Source: a virus (Duplodnaviria > Caudoviricetes). Taken from it: 24,794 nucleotides of DNA. The notes beneath the pieces were generated by a model that saw nothing but the letters and a program-made list of their open reading frames with translations, did not search any database and was not told the DNA's origin. The stretch covers positions 1-24,794 of IMG/VR virus record IMGVR_UViG_3300021560_000734. One strand, 5' to 3'. The position numbers and the translations under genes were made by a program. Of this stretch, positions 7,740 through 24,564 are shown in pieces (the stretch's first letter is position 1; each line of letters opens with the position of its first letter).

Positions 7740-9934
7740 TGGTCACCAACGCGACCGACCCCGGCGGCTTTTATCGCAGCAGCATCCCGGGCACCGGGCA
7801 GAAAGACCCCTACGCGACCGGGGTGATCTCCTCGGTGCTCGGCCAGGCGACGCCGGGCGCGAGCGTATCGGCGCCGACCAACTCCACCGACACGTCGGGC
7901 ACTGGCGGCTTCGACTGGGGCTCGTCCGGCGGCGGCATCTTCAGCGGCGGCGCCGGTCCGACCTCGCCGGGGTCGGGGGTGTTTTCGTTCCAGGGCGGCG
8001 GCGCGATCGACGATATGGCGAATGCGCCGGTTGATGGTGATCCGCCGAACACGCCGCGCAGCATGAGGGGAATGCCCCGGTGGCTACAGCAGACGTCGCG
8101 CGTTATCGAAGGCACCGTCAATGGCGTGCGCGGCGCACTCGGATATCCGCCGATGGTGGAGCCGGAGATCGGCGCCGATCCGGTGTTCAAGTCGATGTTC
8201 GATCCGCGTGAATGGGGTAAAAATCCCCAGGATCAGAACCAGCAGCCCGGCTACGCTGGCGGGGGTGCGATCGATACGGAGATCCAGCCGCGCCGGCGCG
8301 GGCCGCGTCCGCACGATCCGGCGGGTCGGCGGGCGGTGCATGCCCATGTGCAGCGGGCGCTCGATTTCGGTCGGCAGAAATACGGCGTGATGGGCGGTGG
8401 TCCGCGGCCGGCCGGCAGCTATCTCACCGGCGGCGTGGTGCGCGCGTTCGACGACGGCGGGTCGGCTGACGACGACATGGCGCCGGCGCCCGACGATCAG
8501 GGTGCGATCCCGACTGACCAGCCCCCGCAGCCGATGCAGGGGATCATGCGCTATCTGACCGGCGCCGATGCGGCCCATCCGCAAGAGGTGCAGCAGATCG
8601 AGAACATGATCGATCCGCACAACGAGATGACCAAGCCGGATCGTGCCGCCGCAGCGGTTGCGGCAGCGTCGGCGGACGATCCCGCGAGCGGCTTTCCGAT
8701 CTTGCAGCACTATCGGAACTCGTACGAGCACGGGAAGCAGTTTGCGGCACACGCGGCGGACCAGGGCGACATGTCGGCGGCGGCGAATGCCGCCAACATC
8801 GCGTTCGCGAACGTGCCGAACACCAAGCACTACAGGTTCATGGCGAACGGCCCTGACGCGAGTTCCGGCGTCACCATGACGGTGACGGACCAGAACGGGC
8901 GCAGCACCAGCACCAACCTGAGCCAGCCGCAACTCGCCGCGCTGATGAAGGACCGTGCCACGATGTTCGACAGTATGGCCGACATGGCGTCGGGCGACGT
9001 GACGGGCGCAACGCCGGAGCAGCAACAGCCGCAGCCGCAGGACGCGCGGGGCAATCGGACCGCGGTCGGGCGGGCGCTCGATATCTATGGCCTCCTCCAC
9101 GGTCGTGCGGCCGAGCCGCCAGCGGTGTCGGCGCCACAGACCACGGCGGCAGCAGGAACCGCGCCTGCACCCGCCGCCGCGCAGGCGCTCACGGCCGGTG
9201 CAGAGGGCGATGTCGGTGGTGCCATGACGGCGCCCGCGGCTGCGCCTGCCGCTCCGGCCAAAGAGACAAAACCTCGCGGTCGCTGGGCGGATGAGGCCGA
9301 GAAATACGGTATCGACGAAAAGACCGTGAACCTGTCCCACGACAGATTTCCATGGGCCAGCCAGGAGGGCCAGCGTCTCGACTGGCTCGCGAAGCAGCAG
9401 GAAGCCGGGACGAAATATTCTGCCGAACAGACGAAAGCCGAGACCGCTGCGGGCTCGCGCGAGAACGTCCAGAGGATGAGGAATGAAGGCGCAATCGCAG
9501 TAAAGAAGGTGGCCGGGGAGAACTATCTCGCCGGGCTCGACAAGAAAGGGAAGGACGCAGTGGCGCGTCAAATCGCGGACAACATCGCGAAGGACCGGCG
9601 CCTCGCCAATACTCTGGGCGGACGTTTGGTGACCACGATGGTGGGTAATGGCAAATCGATGGACGATGTCGATCAGGCCCTGAAGGAGCAAAAGTTGCCG
9701 AGCATGGGTCAGATTTACGGGCACTATGCGATGCCGAACACGCCCGGCGATCTGGATCTCAGCGCGCCGCAGACGATCGGCGCCGCACCGACGACGGTGT
9801 CGACGCAGGTGCCGGGGACAGCGTCAGGACAGGGTCGGACCTATCCGGTGGCCGGGACCAACCGGACCGTCTACGTCGGGGCCGACGGCAAGATGCGCTA
9901 CACGGACACCGGCGACATCTACAGGCAGCAATAG
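7739..9934 (+). CDS. Putative internal virion / DNA ejection protein 2 (731 aa)
   Basis: ATG overlaps the upstream stop (TGATG 7737-7741). Low-complexity Gly/Ala/Gln-rich sequence without Cys. The ORF-track extension to 7319 overlaps the previous gene and looks spurious. Confidence 0.65.
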   Translation: MVTNATDPGGFYRSSIPGTGQKDPYATGVISSVLGQATPGASVSAPTNSTDTSGTGGFDWGSSGGGIFSGGAGPTSPGSGVFSFQGGGAIDDMANAPVDGDPPNTPRSMRGMPRWLQQTSRVIEGTVNGVRGALGYPPMVEPEIGADPVFKSMFDPREWGKNPQDQNQQPGYAGGGAIDTEIQPRRRGPRPHDPAGRRAVHAHVQRALDFGRQKYGVMGGGPRPAGSYLTGGVVRAFDDGGSADDDMAPAPDDQGAIPTDQPPQPMQGIMRYLTGADAAHPQEVQQIENMIDPHNEMTKPDRAAAAVAAASADDPASGFPILQHYRNSYEHGKQFAAHAADQGDMSAAANAANIAFANVPNTKHYRFMANGPDASSGVTMTVTDQNGRSTSTNLSQPQLAALMKDRATMFDSMADMASGDVTGATPEQQQPQPQDARGNRTAVGRALDIYGLLHGRAAEPPAVSAPQTTAAAGTAPAPAAAQALTAGAEGDVGGAMTAPAAAPAAPAKETKPRGRWADEAEKYGIDEKTVNLSHDRFPWASQEGQRLDWLAKQQEAGTKYSAEQTKAETAAGSRENVQRMRNEGAIAVKKVAGENYLAGLDKKGKDAVARQIADNIAKDRRLANTLGGRLVTTMVGNGKSMDDVDQALKEQKLPSMGQIYGHYAMPNTPGDLDLSAPQTIGAAPTTVSTQVPGTASGQGRTYPVAGTNRTVYVGADGKMRYTDTGDIYRQQ

Positions 9935-12900
9935 TGCGCGCAGCTCTCAACCCGCCGCCCAAGTGGAAGGCGTATCTCGACGCGCACCAGCAGCGCGTGC
10001 GGTCGTTTGCGGATGGCGGTCCGAACGACCCCGAGGAGGCTGAGGACGACGAGGCCGAACCCGAAGGGATGACGCTCGACGAGTTCCTGAAATCACAGCA
10101 GCAGCGACCACCTCCAGCCCAGGCGACCGAGGATGTGACCGGAGCGGCGGAGCCGCAGGGCATGTCGCTCGATCAGTTTCTGAAATCGCAGCAGCAGGAG
10201 CAGGAGGAACCGCGTCTCGACAAGGGCCTCACCGGCGGGCTGGAGGCGGCCGGCATTTCGGCGGGTCGGCGCGTGCTGCCGGCGGCGGGCGCAATTACGG
10301 CTGGTCTTGCTGGAGCTGGATATGGGACCGCGGCGGGCGCGTGGTTGGCGCCGTTTACCGGCGGCCTATCGATCCCGGCGGGTGCGTTGATTGGCGGTGT
10401 GGGTGCAGGGCTCGCTGCCGGGTTTGGTGGCGGCTATCTCGCCAACTTGCTCCAGGACAAGGTGCTGGACGCGCTTGGGTACAAGGAGAAGGTCGAACAG
10501 TACGGTGCTGCGGCTGAAAAGCAGTTTCCCAAGACCTCCTTCGTCGCCGGGCTCGCGCCCGATTTGGCAGCATTCGCCGCTGGCAATGTGAGCCGGGGGG
10601 CGCGGCTTGCGTCTGCCGCGCTACAAGGGGCTGGCGAGGCGGCGTCGGAATATTACGGTACGGGCGAGATCAGTCCCGGCAAGGTTCTGACTGCGACCGG
10701 CCTCGGTGCCGTGTTCGCCAAGCCGCGCGCCGGTGTCGAGCGCACCGTGGGGGTGATCCCCGGCGTGAGGGCGGCGCAGGCGTATGCCGAAAGAGCAGTG
10801 GCAGGAGCAGAACAAGCGGCAGCGCGCCGTGCTCGCATCATGGGCGAAGCACCGGAGGAAGTGCCGGGCGAAACGCCGGTCGAGGCATCGGATGAAGCTG
10901 CCGCACCTGAAGCACCAACTGAAATACAAAGGATGATGGTGCCTGAGGGTGCCGATCTCACGGGAGGCAAGATTCTGTCCCTGAAGGGCGTGCCCGAGGG
11001 CATGAACCTTTCCGAAGCCGGGGTGCCGGTAGAGGGCACGGCGGCAGGTGTGGAGGCGCAGCGGGATGCGGAGGGGGTCAACCGTGTTCCGACCGCACCG
11101 GGGACTGCGGCGCAGGAGGCAAAGCCGGCTGCCGCGGGACCAACCGAATTCGGCGGCAAAGGCTCGCCGATCAGTTATCCGAAAGCGCCGAAATTCGGCA
11201 AGCGCACGACACCGCCGGGGGAGACGAATTTCACGACAGGCGATGTCAAGCCCGATGAAGCGGTGGCGATTGCTGGGCAGAAGGAGACGCCGCCCGACTA
11301 TTTCACCAAGCCGGCTGCCGGTGCGGAGTATGCGCACGGCGACGAGGACATGAGCCACGTCACGCTCAATCGCGAGAGCGATGTCCCCGGCAATGTCGCG
11401 TCCGACCCGAACGATCCGAACAGGATTTTGATCCACCGCGATCTCCCGCCGGTCGTCGATGTGAACGGCAGGCCGATCGATCCGGCCTATCCGCTCGGTG
11501 TGCGCGAGAATACGCGGCGGCAGATCAGCGACGTGCTGCGCAAGATCCGCGAACAGAACCCGGAGCACGCGGGCGCGGCCGAGCAGCACGAGGCGGTGGC
11601 GAAGGCCGCCGGCCACGAGGCACAACGCGCATGGCTCCACGACAAGGGGTACGACAATGAAGCGTTCAAAGCCGCAATCGGCGAAGGCGAGACGCAAGCG
11701 CCGCCGCGCGAAGCAGTCGCAGAGCCAGGACAACCAGCAGAAGCGCCCGCTGCCCCGCCCGTTCCGGCACCAGAGCCGGTAGCCGAGGCGCCGCCGCCGG
11801 CCCCGGAAGCGACCGCGTCGATCTCACGGACGGCACCTGCTCCCGCACCCGAAGTGCCGCCGTCCGAAGGCATCCCCGATTTCCTGCGGGTCGGTTCCAC
11901 GGCGCGTCCGCCGGAGGCATCGGTTCCGCAGTCTCAGAAGGTCCAGGACCCAGCCTTCGCAAAATATCTCGCGCAGCGGGAAGAGGGTCTGGCCAAGGAC
12001 GCCGCGGCGCGGGCGGAGATCGAGGCGCAGCAGCAGGCAGGCCGGGAGGCCAAGACCGCTGCGCGGCTCGGCCGGATGCGGGCCGAACGGTCCGGGGCGA
12101 CGACGAGCATGCCGCTCACCGGCCGGGCAGCACTTGAAGCGATCCGGCAGGGCGAGGTGCGCCGCGCATCACCCGAGATGTCGATGGCCAATCTGCGCAA
12201 GATGGCCGCCGACCTCGACGTGCCGACTGACACGAAGGAAAAGGCGACGCTGGTTCAGCGCATCAACAAGGCGCTCGACGCCTTCGCCAAGGACGAGGGC
12301 GGCGGTGGCCCGCCGATGTTCGGTCCGACGGCGCTGCAACGCGGCCTCGGCGCGGTCAGGCGGTTCATCGCGGACGAGAGCGGCAACATCGGCGCGGGCG
12401 AGGAGGTCGGCGCGCGGCCGAAATCGGAGACGCCCGCGGCTGCCGCGCTCGAAGGCCGCAAGATCGAGCAGCGGCGCCAGCGCGACTTCATGGGCACGGT
12501 CAAAAGTTTTGCCAAGGATGAGGGCGGCGGCGGCCCGCCGGCGTCCATCCCGCAGACGCTGAAAATGCTCACGTCGCAGGGTGGCGCCTATGCGAGCGAT
12601 CCGGTCAAGACGTTCGGCAAGCTCAAGTCGCGCTATGCGCCGCCGAAGGAAGGCTGGCGCACCCGGCAGGCCGGGTCCGAGCAGGAGGCGATGAGCCAGG
12701 GCATCTCCGACAACTTCTTCAGGATGAACCAGCAGAGCGTCGACCACGACGTCGGCCTGATGCAGAACGTCGCCAACCTCAAGGGCAACGACAAGAAGCT
12801 GATGGCGGACGCGGACGTGCAGCAGCAGATGTACCGCGCACGCGAGGCAGGCAAGACCGGCAATCTGACTGGGCCCGTCAAGGCGCTCTACGACAAGCAC

Positions 12901-14850
12901 ATCAAGCCGCTGTTCGAGGACAGCGCGGAGAAGTACGCGAAGATCAAGGCGCTGACCAAGGACTGGTCGCCGGAGCAGTTCGAGGAGTTTTTCGGCAACC
13001 TCGACCCGACCCACGTTCACCGGATGGCGAAGGGCTACAACCGCGCCTGGGACGAACTGGTATCGGGCCAGAGTTCCGATCCGGTCGAGGGCATCGTGCG
13101 CGGGCTCAAGACCAATCCGAGTTCGCTGCAAAGCCGCCGCTTCTTCGCAATCGAGGACGCCAACGGCAAGCGCACCGTGGTGACGCCGACCGACGAGGGC
13201 CTCACGCTGTGGGACAAGGGCAACGCCACCCACGTGGAGCATGAGGGACCGTTCGAGGTCGGCAACAAGATCACCGTCAACGGCAAGGAGTACACGGCGC
13301 GGCAGGCGCTCACGCCCGAGATCAAGGAGAACGCGCGGTTTTCGGACGGCCGCATGGCCGACTACCACGAGAACGCGATGGCGAGCGCGATGCAGGAAAA
13401 TCGCGCGGTGAATACGGCGCTGCGCCACCTCGAATATCTCGAAAGCCTCAAGTCCGATCCGAAATTCAAGGCGTACACGGTCGACCTCAACAAGCCGGGC
13501 GGGCGGGCGGAGGCGCAGCGGCGCGGCTATGCGGAGTCGGCGATGCCACAGATGAAGGGCATCGCGATGGACCCCTTCCTCAAGGCCGCCTTCGACGACT
13601 TCTCGCGGCCCGGCCTCCAGTCGCCGGCGCTCGACGGCCTGCGCAAGATGAGCCAGGCGGTGACCAAGACGCTGTTCTTTACGCCGGTGCCGCACTCGCT
13701 CAACGCGTTCTGGCACTGGTGGGTCGGGCGCGGCTGGGACTGGCTCAAGCCGTCCGAGTACGGGCGGCTGATCCCGGACCTGATGACGGCGTACCGCTCG
13801 GTGATGACGCAGGATGCGTTCCAGCGCCAACTCCTCAAGGCCGGTGCCGGGCTCGTCGAGCCGGGCGTGAGCACGACCGGGTTCGAGCGCAAGATGGCCG
13901 ACGCCATCGGCCTCGACGTCAAACGCAACCCGCTCAAGTGGGAGCAGCTTGCCGGGACGATGGGGCTCGGCAAGGGCGCGGAGGCGACGAGCCGGCTGGT
14001 CGAGGGGCTCTACAACTGGTCAAAGAACACGATGTGGTCGGTCAACGACATCCTGCTCACGCACCAGATCATGGTGAACCAGCGCCGCGGCATGTCGCTC
14101 GAACAGGCGATCGGCCACGCCGAGCAGCACATCCCGAACTACCGGCTGCCGGCGACGATCCTCGGCAGCCGCACGCTCGCACAGGTGATCGGCGACCCAT
14201 CGACGGTGGCGTTCGGGCGCTATCACTACGGCGTCTACAACTCACTCGCCCGCATGGTGAAGGGGCTCACCTTCGGCGATGCGCAGCAACGCACCGAGGC
14301 GGCCGGCAACCTGTTCGCGCTCGGGCTCTTTGCCGCCGTGATGAAGCCGCTGGTGCTCGACCCGATGGTGCAGGCGATCACCGGCGACAAGGAAGCCGAG
14401 ACCGCGCCGCGCGGGCCGCTTTCGCCGATCACCGCGGGGCTAGAATTTGCCGAAGGCAAGAAGGGGCCGGAAGGGCTCGCCGGCGGTGCGCTCACGCTGC
14501 CGCCGCTCCTCGGTGCGGCGCTCCAGTTGTACAAGAACCGCGACTTCGCCGGTCGCCCGATCATCAACCCGGGTGCATCGTTGCCGGTGCAGGGCGGCGA
14601 ACTCAGCGATCAGCTCGCGAGCGGGCTGCTCGCGCCGTTCGGCACGATCCGCAATGCGCAGAACCGCTACCCGGGCGCCGATCCATTCACGATTGCCGCG
14701 AAGGCGTTGGGCGAGCAGTTCGTCGACATCAAGACGAAGAAGCCGGGCTCCGAGGCCAAGGCCGCAAAGGCGATCCGGCAGGAAGAACACCGGCGCATGA
14801 AGCAGCCGCTGGGGCCGTTCGAGAAGCTCGCACGCAACCTGACGCAGTGA
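9934..14850 (+). CDS. Large putative internal virion / DNA ejection protein 3 (1638 aa)
   Basis: GTG overlaps the upstream TAG. N-terminal glycine-zipper hydrophobic stretch (AGAITAGLAGAGYGTAAGAWLAPFTGGLSIPAGALIGGVGAG), Pro/Ala/Glu linker and helical C-terminal region. Largest and last big gene of the virion operon, as for podophage core proteins. Confidence 0.7.
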   Translation: MRAALNPPPKWKAYLDAHQQRVRSFADGGPNDPEEAEDDEAEPEGMTLDEFLKSQQQRPPPAQATEDVTGAAEPQGMSLDQFLKSQQQEQEEPRLDKGLTGGLEAAGISAGRRVLPAAGAITAGLAGAGYGTAAGAWLAPFTGGLSIPAGALIGGVGAGLAAGFGGGYLANLLQDKVLDALGYKEKVEQYGAAAEKQFPKTSFVAGLAPDLAAFAAGNVSRGARLASAALQGAGEAASEYYGTGEISPGKVLTATGLGAVFAKPRAGVERTVGVIPGVRAAQAYAERAVAGAEQAAARRARIMGEAPEEVPGETPVEASDEAAAPEAPTEIQRMMVPEGADLTGGKILSLKGVPEGMNLSEAGVPVEGTAAGVEAQRDAEGVNRVPTAPGTAAQEAKPAAAGPTEFGGKGSPISYPKAPKFGKRTTPPGETNFTTGDVKPDEAVAIAGQKETPPDYFTKPAAGAEYAHGDEDMSHVTLNRESDVPGNVASDPNDPNRILIHRDLPPVVDVNGRPIDPAYPLGVRENTRRQISDVLRKIREQNPEHAGAAEQHEAVAKAAGHEAQRAWLHDKGYDNEAFKAAIGEGETQAPPREAVAEPGQPAEAPAAPPVPAPEPVAEAPPPAPEATASISRTAPAPAPEVPPSEGIPDFLRVGSTARPPEASVPQSQKVQDPAFAKYLAQREEGLAKDAAARAEIEAQQQAGREAKTAARLGRMRAERSGATTSMPLTGRAALEAIRQGEVRRASPEMSMANLRKMAADLDVPTDTKEKATLVQRINKALDAFAKDEGGGGPPMFGPTALQRGLGAVRRFIADESGNIGAGEEVGARPKSETPAAAALEGRKIEQRRQRDFMGTVKSFAKDEGGGGPPASIPQTLKMLTSQGGAYASDPVKTFGKLKSRYAPPKEGWRTRQAGSEQEAMSQGISDNFFRMNQQSVDHDVGLMQNVANLKGNDKKLMADADVQQQMYRAREAGKTGNLTGPVKALYDKHIKPLFEDSAEKYAKIKALTKDWSPEQFEEFFGNLDPTHVHRMAKGYNRAWDELVSGQSSDPVEGIVRGLKTNPSSLQSRRFFAIEDANGKRTVVTPTDEGLTLWDKGNATHVEHEGPFEVGNKITVNGKEYTARQALTPEIKENARFSDGRMADYHENAMASAMQENRAVNTALRHLEYLESLKSDPKFKAYTVDLNKPGGRAEAQRRGYAESAMPQMKGIAMDPFLKAAFDDFSRPGLQSPALDGLRKMSQAVTKTLFFTPVPHSLNAFWHWWVGRGWDWLKPSEYGRLIPDLMTAYRSVMTQDAFQRQLLKAGAGLVEPGVSTTGFERKMADAIGLDVKRNPLKWEQLAGTMGLGKGAEATSRLVEGLYNWSKNTMWSVNDILLTHQIMVNQRRGMSLEQAIGHAEQHIPNYRLPATILGSRTLAQVIGDPSTVAFGRYHYGVYNSLARMVKGLTFGDAQQRTEAAGNLFALGLFAAVMKPLVLDPMVQAITGDKEAETAPRGPLSPITAGLEFAEGKKGPEGLAGGALTLPPLLGAALQLYKNRDFAGRPIINPGASLPVQGGELSDQLASGLLAPFGTIRNAQNRYPGADPFTIAAKALGEQFVDIKTKKPGSEAKAAKAIRQEEHRRMKQPLGPFEKLARNLTQ
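10057..10197 (+). repeat. Duplicated EP.GM[TS]LD[EQ]FLKSQQQ peptide repeat
   Basis: Copies at 10057-10104 and 10150-10197. Confidence 0.85.
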
Positions 14851-15313: not shown

Positions 15314-16090
15314 TCAGGGCTTGTCTGCCATCGCCACGTTCAAATTGCGGTCTGGGTCAAACCCAAACATCCAGACGAGGTGCTGGTAATATTCGGGTTG
15401 CTGCTTCTGCAACTCCGATCGCTGGCGTGGGCCATCTTCGCCGTAGAGGAATACGCTGGCGGTGACAGCAAAAAATTCCCTCTCGTTGGTCATCAGATAG
15501 GCGTCCGCAGGGTAGAGGGCGCGATCCTTGGCCTCCTTGTAGTAGACCAAGATGGAGGGGTTCTTGAACCCGGCGGGCAGTACCTTGGCGTGATATGCGT
15601 GCAGCATTTCATGAAGCATGACCGGCCTTCGCGACGATCGACTGAGGTCGACACGAACTGACACAATACCGGATAGGGGCGCCGTCGTGCGGGTGAGCCG
15701 TTCCTGCGCAGATGCCGTCCATTGAGATTTCTGTGAATCCCAAACGGCGAACACGGAATCCCCCGACGAGCGCGGACCACTCGTCTCCTCATAGCAGGCT
15801 GCGTTGCGTGACGGCCTCTTGCCGCCCGCGATCTGATTGTCGCCCATGCACGCGAATTGATCGACCTCAATTGGAATGGTCCGGAAAAACTTGAGGACAC
15901 GCGGGCTCAGCCCGACGTTCTCGACGATGTCCAATTGGTGTCGCAACGCGGATTCGATTTCGTTGAACGCTTTATGCCCCGCGATCTCGGACAGGTCGAT
16001 GCGATATCCTCGATACTCATTTTCGAGCGGTGCGGCCTGTGCACCTGCGACGATCAGCAGGGACACCAGCGCGACAGTCGGGGATTTCAT
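15314..16090 (-). CDS. Secreted zinc metallopeptidase (HEXXH; anthrax lethal factor / MtfA-like zincin), moron-like
   Basis: Signal peptide MKSPTVALVSLLIVAGAQA|A, VMLHEMLHAYH zinc motif and downstream YLMTNEREFFAV third-ligand motif. GGAGAG RBS before ATG 16090. Confidence 0.8.
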   Translation of the reverse strand: MKSPTVALVSLLIVAGAQAAPLENEYRGYRIDLSEIAGHKAFNEIESALRHQLDIVENVGLSPRVLKFFRTIPIEVDQFACMGDNQIAGGKRPSRNAACYEETSGPRSSGDSVFAVWDSQKSQWTASAQERLTRTTAPLSGIVSVRVDLSRSSRRPVMLHEMLHAYHAKVLPAGFKNPSILVYYKEAKDRALYPADAYLMTNEREFFAVTASVFLYGEDGPRQRSELQKQQPEYYQHLVWMFGFDPDRNLNVAMADKP

Positions 16091-16176
16091 CTGGCTCTCC
16101 TTTGTGGTGGAGAGAGCCTTACACACAATGCGGAAACGAAGGGTTACGGGGATCGTTAAAATTTGAGGGAAAGCCG

Positions 16177-19283: not shown

Positions 19284-19640
19284 TCAGTTCAACTTCGACT
19301 TCGGCCTGTTCTCGTCCTCCTCGGCCACCCTGATCTCCACCTCGGGCGGGATCACGCCGCGGTCCTTCATGTGATCGAGGATCATTTGCACCACGCCCGG
19401 TGCGGCGTGTGCCATCTCGTCCAGTGCCTCGCTGAACTTGCGTTTCATGTGCTCGGTCATGGCCTGGAACACGACGCACCAGAAACTTGTCGTCAAGGCG
19501 AAGGTGCTAAACGCAAACGAGAGGGCCGATGACGTCGTCCAGCCGTCGCTCACGCCGCGGATGAACGCAGCCACGGTGTTCACGGTCAGAAAAACCAGGG
19601 CGACCCCGGTCGAGATACGCAGCCAGAAGGCAGAGGCCAT
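19284..19640 (-). CDS. Two-TM membrane protein (118 aa)
   Basis: Two hydrophobic segments then a charged tail; GGAGGA RBS. Confidence 0.7.
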   Translation of the reverse strand: MASAFWLRISTGVALVFLTVNTVAAFIRGVSDGWTTSSALSFAFSTFALTTSFWCVVFQAMTEHMKRKFSEALDEMAHAAPGVVQMILDHMKDRGVIPPEVEIRVAEEDENRPKSKLN

Positions 19641-19650
19641 ACGGGTCCTC

Positions 19651-20067
19651 CTATGGGCGCGGCGTCCCCTGTTCGTCGATGGCGGTGATGAGCCGCATGA
19701 TGGCGGTGCGTATGGACGGACTCATATCATAGAGCGCACCTGCCATCTTCTGTCCCTCGCGGCGACCGAGGAAGTGGTCGACGGCGGCGTGGTTTGTCTT
19801 TCCCTGCGGATCGTCCGGCGCAGGCTGGCGGGCGAGCCCGCCGTAGAAGTAGGAGATCGGGACGTCGAGGATGCCGGCGAGCTGCCACAGCCGGCCGGCG
19901 CCGACCCGGTTCTTGCCGCTCTCCATCTTCTGCACTTGCTGGAAGGTGAGGCCGAGGCTCTGGCCGAGCACCTGCTGCGCCATCCCGAGCGCAACACGGC
20001 GCTGGCGGATCTTCTGCCCTACGGCATAGTCGATGCGTCCCTCGTCGTTGAGGTCGCCCTTCATCAT
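19651..20067 (-). CDS. XRE/Cro-CI family HTH regulator (alphaproteobacterial PraR/PhrR-like type)
   Basis: D..VG.KIR.RR..LGM.Q..LG..LGLTFQQVQK.E.G.NRVGAGRL..LA..LDVP.SYFY signature. Confidence 0.9.
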   Translation of the reverse strand: MMKGDLNDEGRIDYAVGQKIRQRRVALGMAQQVLGQSLGLTFQQVQKMESGKNRVGAGRLWQLAGILDVPISYFYGGLARQPAPDDPQGKTNHAAVDHFLGRREGQKMAGALYDMSPSIRTAIMRLITAIDEQGTPRP

Positions 20068-21558: not shown

Positions 21559-21904
21559 CGATCCATCTCGCAGTTGGCCCCAGGGTTCCCCGAGAGGTTG
21601 TTTATATGTAAGCGTCACACTTTGCGCAAAAATGTTGGTAGTCAAGGTGTCAATTGTACATATGTTTAAAAATGATGGCGTGTCGGCGGTTGATATGGCA
21701 ATGTGTCAAAGTGAGCCAATAGCAAGGGAGAGCACCAGGTTAAAAGAGGCGAGCCGGACAACTTGAAACGCGCCAGACACCGGTAGCGAGCCATCTATGG
21801 CGATAGCGCCAAATCTCCATGAGCGAGCCACGGTTCAACTGAGAGTGCCAGAATGTGGGTGCGAGCCGTTCTTCGTGAGAGTACCAAAGGGAATGAGCGT
21901 ACGG

Positions 21905-21964
21905 GGGAGCGTCGCAGGGAGCCCGGGTTTGTTGGATCGGGCTCGGGTTTCCTGCGGCGATCCT
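21905..21964 (+). other. Long RNA hairpin inserted in the array
   Basis: 21906-21931 pairs with 21938-21963 over 26 positions, with seven G-U pairs and one G-A mismatch; 6-nt loop TTGGAT. It folds fully only on the + strand. Confidence 0.8.
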
Positions 21965-22010
21965 AAGCGAGCCTGATCAGGATGAGTGCACCATAGATGA
22001 CGAGCGTCTC

Positions 22011-22220
22011 ATGACTGCGACGATCTACGTCAAAGCGACTGTCCCCGACGAGCTTGCGCAGAACTGGCTCCAGCATCTGCGCGACTTCGATGCTACCAAT
22101 CCCAACTGTCATTTTGAAGTCGTGGTCGAGAGTGAAACGAAATCGGTCGGCGACGTCATGCGTACGATCGACATCAATCCGCCGCTCGACCTGCAACTGT
22201 TCGCGCGGCGGAAGACGTGA
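22011..22220 (+). CDS. Small hypothetical protein (69 aa) embedded in the array
   Basis: ATG lies 4 nt after a half edge repeat; the TGA stop is inside the next edge repeat (GTGAGCCA). Protein-like composition; fills the array gap exactly. Confidence 0.7.
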   Translation: MTATIYVKATVPDELAQNWLQHLRDFDATNPNCHFEVVVESETKSVGDVMRTIDINPPLDLQLFARRKT

Positions 22221-22366
22221 GCCAAGAGTAAACGAGAGCACCATAAGCAGGGAGCGAACCATCGAACCCTGAGAGCACCAGGAGATGTGAGTCGGGAGCC
22301 TGGTCAAGCGAACGCACCAAAGAGTCAGGAGCGAGCCAGCATGATCGAGTGCACCATGTCCCATGA

Positions 22367-22397
22367 GCGCCATCCTACGGGGTGGCGTACTTTCTTT
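22367..22397 (+). terminator. Intrinsic terminator closing the array transcript
   Basis: gcgccatcc-TACG-gggtggcgt 9-bp stem with a C(UACG)G tetraloop, followed by ac-TTTCTTT (22391-22397). Confidence 0.75.
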
Positions 22398-22406
22398 GGT
22401 CACGCT

Positions 22407-22600
22407 CTGCATCACAAACTGCATCACACAAAACTGAAAAACACTAGTAATATCAATAGCTGATGGCTAAAGTTGGCGCGCATCGCCCGCTCCACTGACA
22501 CACAAAATTTGCAAGCAGTCACAGCTAGTTAACTGTTCTCGCAGGAGGAATATTGACAATTGCGCCACAAATGGCCACACAAACCGTATCACAAACCAAA
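22407..22600 (+). other. Putative attP: tRNA-Gly 3'-end-like core (CATCGCCCGCTCCA, 22481-22494) flanked by arm-type repeats
   Basis: The core equals the typical 3' end of tRNA-Gly genes including CCA. CACA(CA)AA-type direct repeats lie on both sides (ctgcatcaca at 22407 and 22419; gccacaaa, gccacacaaac, gtatcacaaac in 22564-22595). IHF-like TATCAAtagcTGA at 22451. Directly upstream of the integrase. Confidence 0.7.
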
Positions 22601-22615
22601 CTGCGAGGAGTCACC

Positions 22616-24025
22616 ATGTCCACCTATCTCATGCAGCGCGGCGGAATGTGGCACTACCGTCGTCGCGTCCCGGGCGACTTCGCCCACCTTGATCCGCGCC
22701 CGTTCATTACACAGTCGACCAAAATCAAAGTCCGCCACGATCCGCGCGGTGTGAAGGCGGCGCTGATCGCTGAGCGCATCAATGTCGAAACCGAACGCTA
22801 CCTCGCCGGCGTTCTCCAGGGCGACCACGCGGCAGCCAAGGCGCGCTACGACGATGCCGTGCGCCGCGTCCGTGCACTCGGCCTCAACTGGGTTGGGCTT
22901 GGCGTGCTATCTGATGATAGCCAGATCGTTGAACTGCAACGACACGTCGCTGCACTCACCAAGGAGATTGCAATCGGGCGCGCCAATCCTAGCATGGCAG
23001 CAACATACGCCCCGCAAGTCGCTGCCGTGCTCGGCGCAGTCGCGCCCGCCACCATGCGCATCTCGGAGATGCCCGCCGCGTTCGAGGAACTCAAGGAAAT
23101 CGCGAGCAGCAACAAATCGCCAGCGCAAAAGAAAAAGTGGAAAGCATTTCGCGAACGCAGCGTGAAGTACTTCATCGAGGCGATCGGCGAGGATAAGGAC
23201 CTCTCCGCGGTTGGCCACGATGACGTGCGCACGTATGTCGACTGGTGGAAGGCCGGGATCAAGGCCGGGAAATGGACCGCCGGTTATGCCAACAAGGATT
23301 TTGGATCGCTCGGCGGTATGTACAAGAAACTGCGCAAGCACAATCGCTGGGACCACCTTGACCAACGTCTATTTGACGACATCATGATCGAGCAGCCGAA
23401 GGTGCAGAACAAGGAAGAAAAGCGTAAGTGGCCGGCGTTCAGCACCGAGTTCATCCAGACGAAGTTGCTTGCTGATGGCGCGTTCGACAAACTCAACGCC
23501 CAGGCGCGGCGCGCATTCTTCGTTATGATTGAAACCGGCATGCGGCCGGAGGAGGTGGTGAATCTGCGTCGCGGCCATATCTGCCGCGACCACAACATCC
23601 CGCATCTCGAAGTGAAGGCCGAGGATCGCGAGGTCAAGACCGCAAATTCCATCCGCGACATTCCGCTGGTCGGCGTCTCGCTTGCGGCCGTCGACGCAGC
23701 TCTCGCCGATCTGCGAGAGGACGAGGATCGGCTTTTCCCGAACTACTATGACAATGCGAGCGGTTGGTCTGCCACCGTAGGCAAGCACCTGCGTGTCAAC
23801 AAGCTCAAGGAGACAGGGCGCCACGTCCCGTATTCGATCCGCCATTCCTTCAAGACCAGACTGCGCAAATATATGCTCGACCGCAACGGCTATCGCGGTG
23901 ACGAATTGCTTGACCTTATGATGGGGCATGATCAAGGCAAGGAGGACTACGGCGAGATCGACCTGGAGCAAAAGTTGGAATGGACGCTCGACATGATGTT
24001 CAAGGAATGGCCACGCAATCTGTGA
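22616..24025 (+). CDS. int: Tyrosine recombinase / phage integrase with DUF6538-like N-terminal arm-binding domain (469 aa)
   Basis: YLMQRGGMWHYRRRVP N-terminus; catalytic motifs TGMRPEE (R), VKT (K), YSIRHSF (R), LMMGH (H) and EDYG (Y). GAGGAG RBS before ATG 22616. Confidence 0.93.
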   Translation: MSTYLMQRGGMWHYRRRVPGDFAHLDPRPFITQSTKIKVRHDPRGVKAALIAERINVETERYLAGVLQGDHAAAKARYDDAVRRVRALGLNWVGLGVLSDDSQIVELQRHVAALTKEIAIGRANPSMAATYAPQVAAVLGAVAPATMRISEMPAAFEELKEIASSNKSPAQKKKWKAFRERSVKYFIEAIGEDKDLSAVGHDDVRTYVDWWKAGIKAGKWTAGYANKDFGSLGGMYKKLRKHNRWDHLDQRLFDDIMIEQPKVQNKEEKRKWPAFSTEFIQTKLLADGAFDKLNAQARRAFFVMIETGMRPEEVVNLRRGHICRDHNIPHLEVKAEDREVKTANSIRDIPLVGVSLAAVDAALADLREDEDRLFPNYYDNASGWSATVGKHLRVNKLKETGRHVPYSIRHSFKTRLRKYMLDRNGYRGDELLDLMMGHDQGKEDYGEIDLEQKLEWTLDMMFKEWPRNL

Positions 24026-24028
24026 TGG

Positions 24029-24244
24029 TCAGGGGCCAGCCCCGGTGTGCCCGTTCGCGTGCAACAGATGACGAATGCGCTCGCGGGCGTCACCGCGGGC
24101 GCGCACTTTCGCGAGCCTCCGCTCCACGTTCTCGAACAGCGGAATGTATTGCGGCCCGTACACCTCGACGATGAACGCCAGCATCCACAGCGTTTCCTCC
24201 AGCACCGCCTCCGTCAGTTCGCTCTCGTCCTTGACCGGCTTCAT
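24029..24244 (-). CDS. Small helical hypothetical protein (71 aa)
   Basis: MKPVKDESELTEAVLEETLW...YGPQYIPLFENVERRL; ATGA overlap with the upstream gene; ends 3 nt from the int stop. Confidence 0.7.
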   Translation of the reverse strand: MKPVKDESELTEAVLEETLWMLAFIVEVYGPQYIPLFENVERRLAKVRARGDARERIRHLLHANGHTGAGP

Positions 24245-24564
24245 CGTGCTGCCTTCCCGGCCGCGTTGCGTTCGCGGGCTTCGCTGCGGCGGGTGTTCAG
24301 GGCGTCGAGGTCCATCCGCTCGGTCTGGTTCCAGAACGCCTCCACGTCGGCCCGGGTGAACGCCCGGTGACGGCTCGACGTGCCGACGCCGCGCTGGTGG
24401 AAGTTGAGGACGCCGCTCTCGCAGAACCGCACCAGCGTGCGCGGCGAATAGCCGAGCGCCGCCGCGAGCTGCGCCAGGTTGAGATAGATCTTGCCCTCGA
24501 ACGCCTTGCGCACATGGTCGGGCAGATCGTACTTGCTGCGCGTGATCTTCCTGCGCCGGGTCAA
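24241..24564 (-). CDS. Excisionase-like HTH (MerR/HTH_17-type) protein (107 aa)
   Basis: YLNLAQLAAALGYSPRTLVRFCESGVL...HRAFTRADVEAF; close to int; TTG start coupled to the upstream stop. Confidence 0.75.
   Translation of the reverse strand: MTRRRKITRSKYDLPDHVRKAFEGKIYLNLAQLAAALGYSPRTLVRFCESGVLNFHQRGVGTSSRHRAFTRADVEAFWNQTERMDLDALNTRRSEARERNAAGKAAR

Follow-up and report, generated by a model that had tools for sequence, protein, structure and literature searches.

Ten dual-repeat TIGR guide units of the SpTIGR repeat type beside the likely attachment site of an uncultured temperate phage

What are the ten repeated units at positions 21709–22369 of a contig from an uncultured temperate phage, and which protein would use them? 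A first-pass annotation of this contig (the window, meaning the whole stretch of 24,794 nt that was analysed) had proposed a single array with TIGR architecture. All ten dual-spacer, TIGR-type guide units are present where that annotation had placed them, every one of them (10/10) parses as two alternating repeats, edge and loop, around two short spacers, and the spacer pairs originally listed are correct to within 1 nt. The unit pattern matches ten times within 21700–22380; in 2,000 first-order resamples it averaged 0.0125 matches and never exceeded one. Across both strands of the whole window there are 11 matches, the extra one, at 1121, being isolated within a coding region. The expectation that repeat finders would miss the array was borne out, with Tandem Repeats Finder and Rfam reporting nothing there.

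The units do not form one continuous run, as had been assumed, but three blocks of five, one and four units, interrupted by a hairpin and a 69-aa open reading frame (ORF; Table 1). Unit ends were predicted from those of the synthetic SpTasH tigRNA, AGCC...AGCG, listed in Table S3 of PMC12045711, and give lengths of 36 nt (2/10), 37 nt (5/10), 38 nt (2/10) and 40 nt (1/10); the period of 36–40 nt, mostly 36–38 nt, described earlier holds as a range, with the 36-nt length itself in the minority. A common frame for both repeats, annotated as GA-N5-CCA, is likewise present and is restated here in TIGR terms as box D (AG), a 4-nt gap and box C (CC(A/G)), with eight variable nucleotides and a conserved G per spacer. 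The AG...CC(A/G) arrangement occurs in edge and loop repeats alike, and the box-D G is kept in seven of the ten loops. Both interruptions begin right after a GAGCG half-edge, each block stops at a predicted processing point, and the array ends in truncated edge repeats followed by a terminator-like hairpin.

Table 1. Coordinates of the array blocks and neighbouring features in the window.
Feature	Position	Strand	Description
Candidate operator palindrome	21690..21709		TTGATA-N8-TGTCAA, directly upstream of the array
Block 1	21714..21899	+	five predicted tigRNA units (38, 37, 37, 38, 36 nt); 3'-truncated edge GAGCG at end
G-U-rich hairpin	21900..21965	+	22-bp stem; inserted at edge processing point
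Block 2	21970..22006	+	one predicted tigRNA unit (37 nt)
Small phage ORF	22011..22220	+	69 aa; inside the array
Block 3	22220..22369	+	four predicted tigRNA units (37, 40, 37, 36 nt); truncated edge at end
Terminator-like hairpin and T-run	22367..22398	+	right after the last unit
Likely attP	22409..22593		arm-type repeats, GCAYCACA-like (2+3), ~12-nt spacing, around a 20-bp segment
Tyrosine integrase	22616..24025	+	DUF6538 + Phage_integrase; 47% identical to that of the complete relative G020
Excisionase-like HTH gene	24241..24564	-	G020 counterpart near the downstream end of the tasA-containing gene run

The window edge consensus, GAGCGAGCCA, lies one base from the SpTIGR edge, AAGCGAGCCA, and has an identical box D and box C; in Salicola phage CGphi29, whose array is validated, this SpTIGR edge is combined with the loop AAGACAACCA. 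Because the window consensus so nearly matches a validated array, the comparison supports assigning the window array to dual-repeat TIGR of the SpTIGR repeat type. The earlier description of a phage-encoded, RNA-guided targeting array thus keeps its TIGR identity, while the divergent subtype that it had entertained is not supported. The available text of PMC12045711 describes dual-repeat TIGR as alternating 8–12-nt edge and loop repeats with two short spacers and a unit of ~36 nt, mentions an extra base pair inside the edge repeat, and lists longer spacers as exceptions. A C-G pair inside the edge repeat is present in five of the seven inner edges of the window array, and the corresponding pair is C-G, U-G or U-A in 516/541 family edges among the matches listed.

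The repeat pattern recurs at no fewer than 152 loci in viral contigs, at least as counted here, and 4,126 dual-repeat arrays are catalogued in the accessible part of bioRxiv 10.64898/2026.09.09.750476. Parsed 9+9 units (1,359/1,580 among the matches listed) give a family consensus with edge GAGCGAGCC(A/G), loop GAGAGCACC(A/G) and eight variable bases. Among the matches listed, a Nop-domain protein is the only non-repeat protein family common to the loci, and a full Tas match occurs in 60/82 array loci of at least 4 kb, loci that overlap one another and from which the Tas profile itself was built. The Nop-domain profile matches PDB TasH and 9mty with E values of 1e-10 to 1e-13, and Tas is found in 23/27 further whole records, including 13/15 that are at least 90% complete. 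No close relative of the window array was found in cultured phages.

Integrase and HTH genes lie close to the array, and the repeats could in principle be DNA-binding sites for one of these proteins instead of an RNA array. The repeats are not palindromic, however, and the arm-type repeats near the integrase are a different motif located outside the array. Repeats of the window type also adjoin tas in phages and prophages that are not related to one another, and they agree with those of a validated tigRNA array; we find the DNA-binding explanation scarcely credible. Two other repeat architectures were considered and set aside. The locus shares with CRISPR arrays and phage mini-arrays a repeat-spacer organisation carried by a phage, spacer turnover and a likely aim at other mobile DNA, but it has two alternating 9–10-nt repeats and split 8-nt spacers where CRISPR has one 25–36-nt repeat; a CRISPR array was rejected, there being no single near-identical repeat of that length with long spacers, and no cas genes were found in the window. 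A stem-loop TIGR array, in which palindromic stems flank spacer pairs, was also rejected: the units have conserved edge repeats, and the single hairpin within the array is paired along its whole length, with no spacer pair inside it.

Which protein would use these guides? Profile searches of all six frames of the window, which belongs to a virus record that is 38% complete, gave no match to Tas. A complete relative (G020; 65,384 bp with terminal repeats; also L154, L292 and the fragment L031) matches 22 of the 26 window genes at 27–83% identity. In the corresponding position, ahead of the att region, it carries an array of 31 edges whose spacers differ from those of the window. The only tasA of G020 is found on the other strand, 6.8 kb from this att-side array and ~3.8 kb beyond the gene that matches the last gene of the window contig. 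Since this position corresponds to the part missing from the window contig, the window phage probably has its cognate tasA there. A syntenic relative with both array and tasA, together with the same repeats beside Nop-domain Tas genes in many phages, upholds the TIGR architecture first suggested for the locus.

The TasA of G020 has 289 aa, with ~45 residues before the part aligned with TasR/TasH, and its only match is Transposase_20; leaving no room for a nuclease, it appears to be nuclease-free. Its YxxxxxxH motif aligns with Y289/H296 of SpTasH, the pair that processes guides in that protein according to the available text of PMC13421893. The TasA clade of G020 is also found in genomes of many phyla (L203–L264, with labels including Halomonas, Effusibacillus and Acidobacteriaceae KBS 96), and cultured hosts among these records could permit native tests. 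Elsewhere in G020, at ~9900–14250 (L154:15340–19700), the genes for YqaJ exonuclease, RecT and TasA have arrays lying between them, tasA coming after YqaJ/RecT; RecT-like genes occur near arrays in few other loci (L018/L019, L013/L136, L011), which shows no general link.

Set against SpTIGR-TasH of Salicola phage CGphi29, as presented in the accessible parts of PMC12045711 and PMC13421893, the window system has nearly the same edge, AG as box D and CCA as box C in edge and loop alike, eight variable nucleotides per spacer, a C-G pair in the edge and, in the G020 Tas, a retained Y/H processing pair. It differs in the loop (GAGAGCACCA in the window array), in a G020 Tas that lacks an HNH domain and is 26% identical over the Nop part, in an array that lies kilobases from tas, and in having eight of ten units longer than 36 nt. 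Compared with dual-repeat TIGR-TasA systems (FpTIGR; bioRxiv 10.64898/2026.09.09.750476, as far as its available text goes), the solo-Nop Tas of G020, arrays both upstream and downstream of tas, and truncated terminal edges followed by a terminator are shared features, whereas the additional array at the att site, in opposite orientation, is not.

The window itself opens, at its left end, with tail and internal virion genes and continues through DUF927 primase/helicase-like and HTH genes to the array, the likely attP, the integrase and the excisionase. Best matches among cultured phages are to 60-kb Rhizobium podoviruses for a virion protein and to Microcystis- and Dinoroseobacter-labelled phages for the integrase, and we infer an alphaproteobacterial host. 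The repeats at 22409–22593 we take, from what is generally known of tyrosine integrases, to be integrase arm-type sites, and the 20-bp att segment between them is conserved between the window phage and G020. A search of 401 genomes for a host attB returned one match to the 20-bp att motif and five control matches, and thus identified no attB. A separate ORF of 270 aa at 15314–16126 on the minus strand has lower GC, a HEXXH zinc-peptidase motif and weak, below-cutoff Pfam matches to ATLF and Peptidase_M90; it is absent from G020 and looks like an accessory gene.

Spacers differ thoroughly between the two phages. The window spacer pairs, compared with 55 parsed G020 units as the first-pass annotation had recommended for relatives, have at least six mismatches of 16 positions even in the best match; repeats stay and spacers turn over. 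The targets of these spacers were sought with the TIGR geometry of spacer A plus the reverse complement of spacer B. For the ten window units there were no matches with up to one mismatch and gaps of 0–4 in 1.73 Mb of fetched loci, none with up to two mismatches in the window and G020, and none with gaps of -1 to 3 in 0.85 Mb of loci from kin phages. The 1,483 family units matched the fetched loci in counts equal to those of control geometries, and self-targeting in seven other records was not above controls. The paired spacer sites that the earlier annotation had proposed to look for thus did not emerge above control geometries in the window, G020, kin or fetched loci.

A further scan of viral contigs, covering units 5 and 10 only (the 36-nt units, 2/10), returned 120 and 21 stretches, respectively. 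Those of unit 5 spread over gaps of 0/1/2 as 40/39/41 and include eight exact 18-nt matches, on contigs of 35–52% GC with differing flanks and with KGMHEE on the opposite strand; unit 10 has a single 18-nt match (L438), and within 3 kb of it no protein is shared with either the window or G020. Given the even gap spread, the differing flanks and the lack of shared proteins, these matches were rejected as chance.

The abutment of array, likely attP and integrase in both the window phage and G020 brings up another role, in which the guides would steer TasA to aid the neighbouring integrase in guided integration or excision; TasA-guided integration is raised in the discussion of PMC12045711, in the portion available. 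Yet matches of the units to the att region, or to the genome of either phage, do not exceed controls, and the two phages, which are related, have a conserved att core but no spacers in common. We consider guided integration very improbable, and treat the integrase as a neighbour of the array whose partnership with it is only putative.

The reading that we favour, and regard as fairly probable, is that of an SpTIGR-type satellite array in a temperate podovirus, apart from tas and next to the likely attP and the integrase gene. Its transcript would be cut in the edges into 36–40-nt guides by a nuclease-free TasA, whose gene probably lies in the portion of the genome that the contig lacks and which would bind DNA without cutting it. 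A plus-strand transcript would run from the AT-rich gap at ~21590–21710 to the terminator at 22367. By analogy with published dual-repeat systems, the TasA Y/H pair would cut each edge between GAGCG and AGCC, releasing the guides; a TasA dimer would then hold a guide, with spacer A and spacer B pairing with opposite strands of a 16–18-bp site. Guide-loaded TasA may block transcription while leaving the DNA intact, and TasA-mediated repression is reported in the accessible text of bioRxiv 10.64898/2026.09.09.750476. Such silencing would be aimed at competing phages or other mobile DNA, competing phages being, by analogy only, the most likely.

The window array is more irregular than those of G020 and its kin. 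Units of 36 nt account for 2/10 in the window compared with 19/30 in the G020 att-side array (Fisher p 0.03) and 822/999 family-wide among the matches listed; inner edges are intact in 3/7 compared with 30/30 in G020 (p 0.0005) and 455/541 in the family, again among the matches listed. The box-D G, lost in 3/10 window loops, stands at 96–97% in the family logo among the matches listed. Because of this roughness in lengths, edges and box-D G relative to kin, a decaying TIGR array is a fair rival: the array would once have been functional and would now be drifting, with tas lost or the satellite unselected, and be kept partly because its edge remnants act as leader and ribosome-binding sequence for the small ORF. 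Ten units where G020 has 31 edges at the same site, two insertions that interrupt the array, and length and edge defects in excess of both G020 and the family all fit such decay. Against it, no unit is broken by the insertions, both of which fall at the processing point, the array still has its terminal truncated edge and its terminator, and G020, with an intact tasA, also has 37-nt units (9/30 in its att-side array) and loop variants such as GATAGCGCC. We judge decay to be unlikely, and keep to a satellite array served by TasA.

The palindrome TTGATA-N8-TGTCAA has a single exact site in each of the two phages, the window phage and G020, and in both it immediately precedes the att-side array; the motif was defined post hoc, after both sites had been seen. 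It may be an operator that controls the att-side array separately. G020 has a second site, with one mismatch, in another intergenic gap. No sigma-70-like promoter was found for the array on the plus strand. The hairpin at 21900–21965 has a predicted stability of -48.3 kcal/mol (z -5.6), equalled by 0/200 shuffles, and its stem is the longest among 252 intra-array gaps examined; no look-alike was found in the fetched array loci, and it might serve RNase III cleavage or act as a stability signal. One terminator-like hairpin was found, compared with a shuffle mean of 1.7, and its position is what supports it.

The 69-aa ORF starts 4 nt past the truncated edge and shares the last A of its stop codon with unit 7. 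As a TIGR partner it was rejected: among its 47 relatives in viral contigs only one has a tas match and an array in the fetched flanks. In G020 the ORF has its counterpart elsewhere in the genome. The G020 att-side array (L154:9120–9776; L031:7030–7688) also ends in GAGCG, immediately followed by the start codon (ATG) of a small gene, though a different one, and since both arrays share this arrangement, the last half-edge may be a ribosome-binding site in both phages.

Arrays far from tas are not peculiar to these two phages. They lie 4.9–50 kb from tas in 6/6 tas-bearing records fetched whole; five of the six were chosen since a locus lacked tas, and the count thus establishes that such arrays exist, not how frequent they are. 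Records that are at least 90% complete and lack Tas are G432, which has no parsable array, and G446 (57 kb, complete, terminal repeats), which has six intact 36-nt units in two arrays (C1:46940–47085 and 19585–19657 on the minus strand) and gave no match to Tas even with HMM filters off. By its sequence, G446 is a candidate tas-less, or orphan, TIGR phage.

G446 makes it conceivable that the window array, too, is a working orphan, belonging to a phage without tas, with guides that would be loaded on, and redirect or soak up, a TasA supplied by a prophage in the same cell or by a co-infecting phage. But of the 14 near-complete records whose array could be parsed, only one lacks Tas, and in the closest complete relative tasA falls precisely within the stretch that the window contig does not cover, making an orphan array in the window phage a distinctly unlikely explanation. 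Among the papers accessible to us none deals with orphan or att-side TIGR arrays, although the TIGRFinder supplementary tables or other papers may already list these loci, and our literature search on tigRNA with prophage and integrase found only PMC12045711.

As one more dual-repeat TIGR array, the window array adds little: by its array features it is a further member of a known RNA-guided family, its cognate tas deduced from a complete relative. A broader and more speculative idea, which we put forward tentatively and think rather doubtful as a whole, is that TIGR phages run separately controlled satellite arrays, with the att-side array placed behind a conserved palindromic operator of its own, away from the gene run that includes tasA, so that guide supply could be switched independently of the effector, for instance in the lysis-lysogeny decision; at the extreme, in-trans arrays from tas-less phages such as G446 could hijack or jam a rival TasA. 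Spacer acquisition and natural targets are named as open questions in the accessible text of PMC12045711 and bioRxiv 10.64898/2026.09.09.750476, and the window phage and G020, with replaced spacers at one fixed site and, in one of them, arrays interleaved with YqaJ/RecT, offer a usable case for both. Published surveys, as described in the same available texts, start from tas and cover 5 kb (PMC12045711) or up to 10 kb (bioRxiv 10.64898/2026.09.09.750476) around it. Because they centre on tas with 5–10-kb flanks, distant and tas-less arrays are under-sampled; Tas-centred surveys miss arrays that lie far from tas or in tas-less phages, and the guide repertoire per phage is consequently under-counted.
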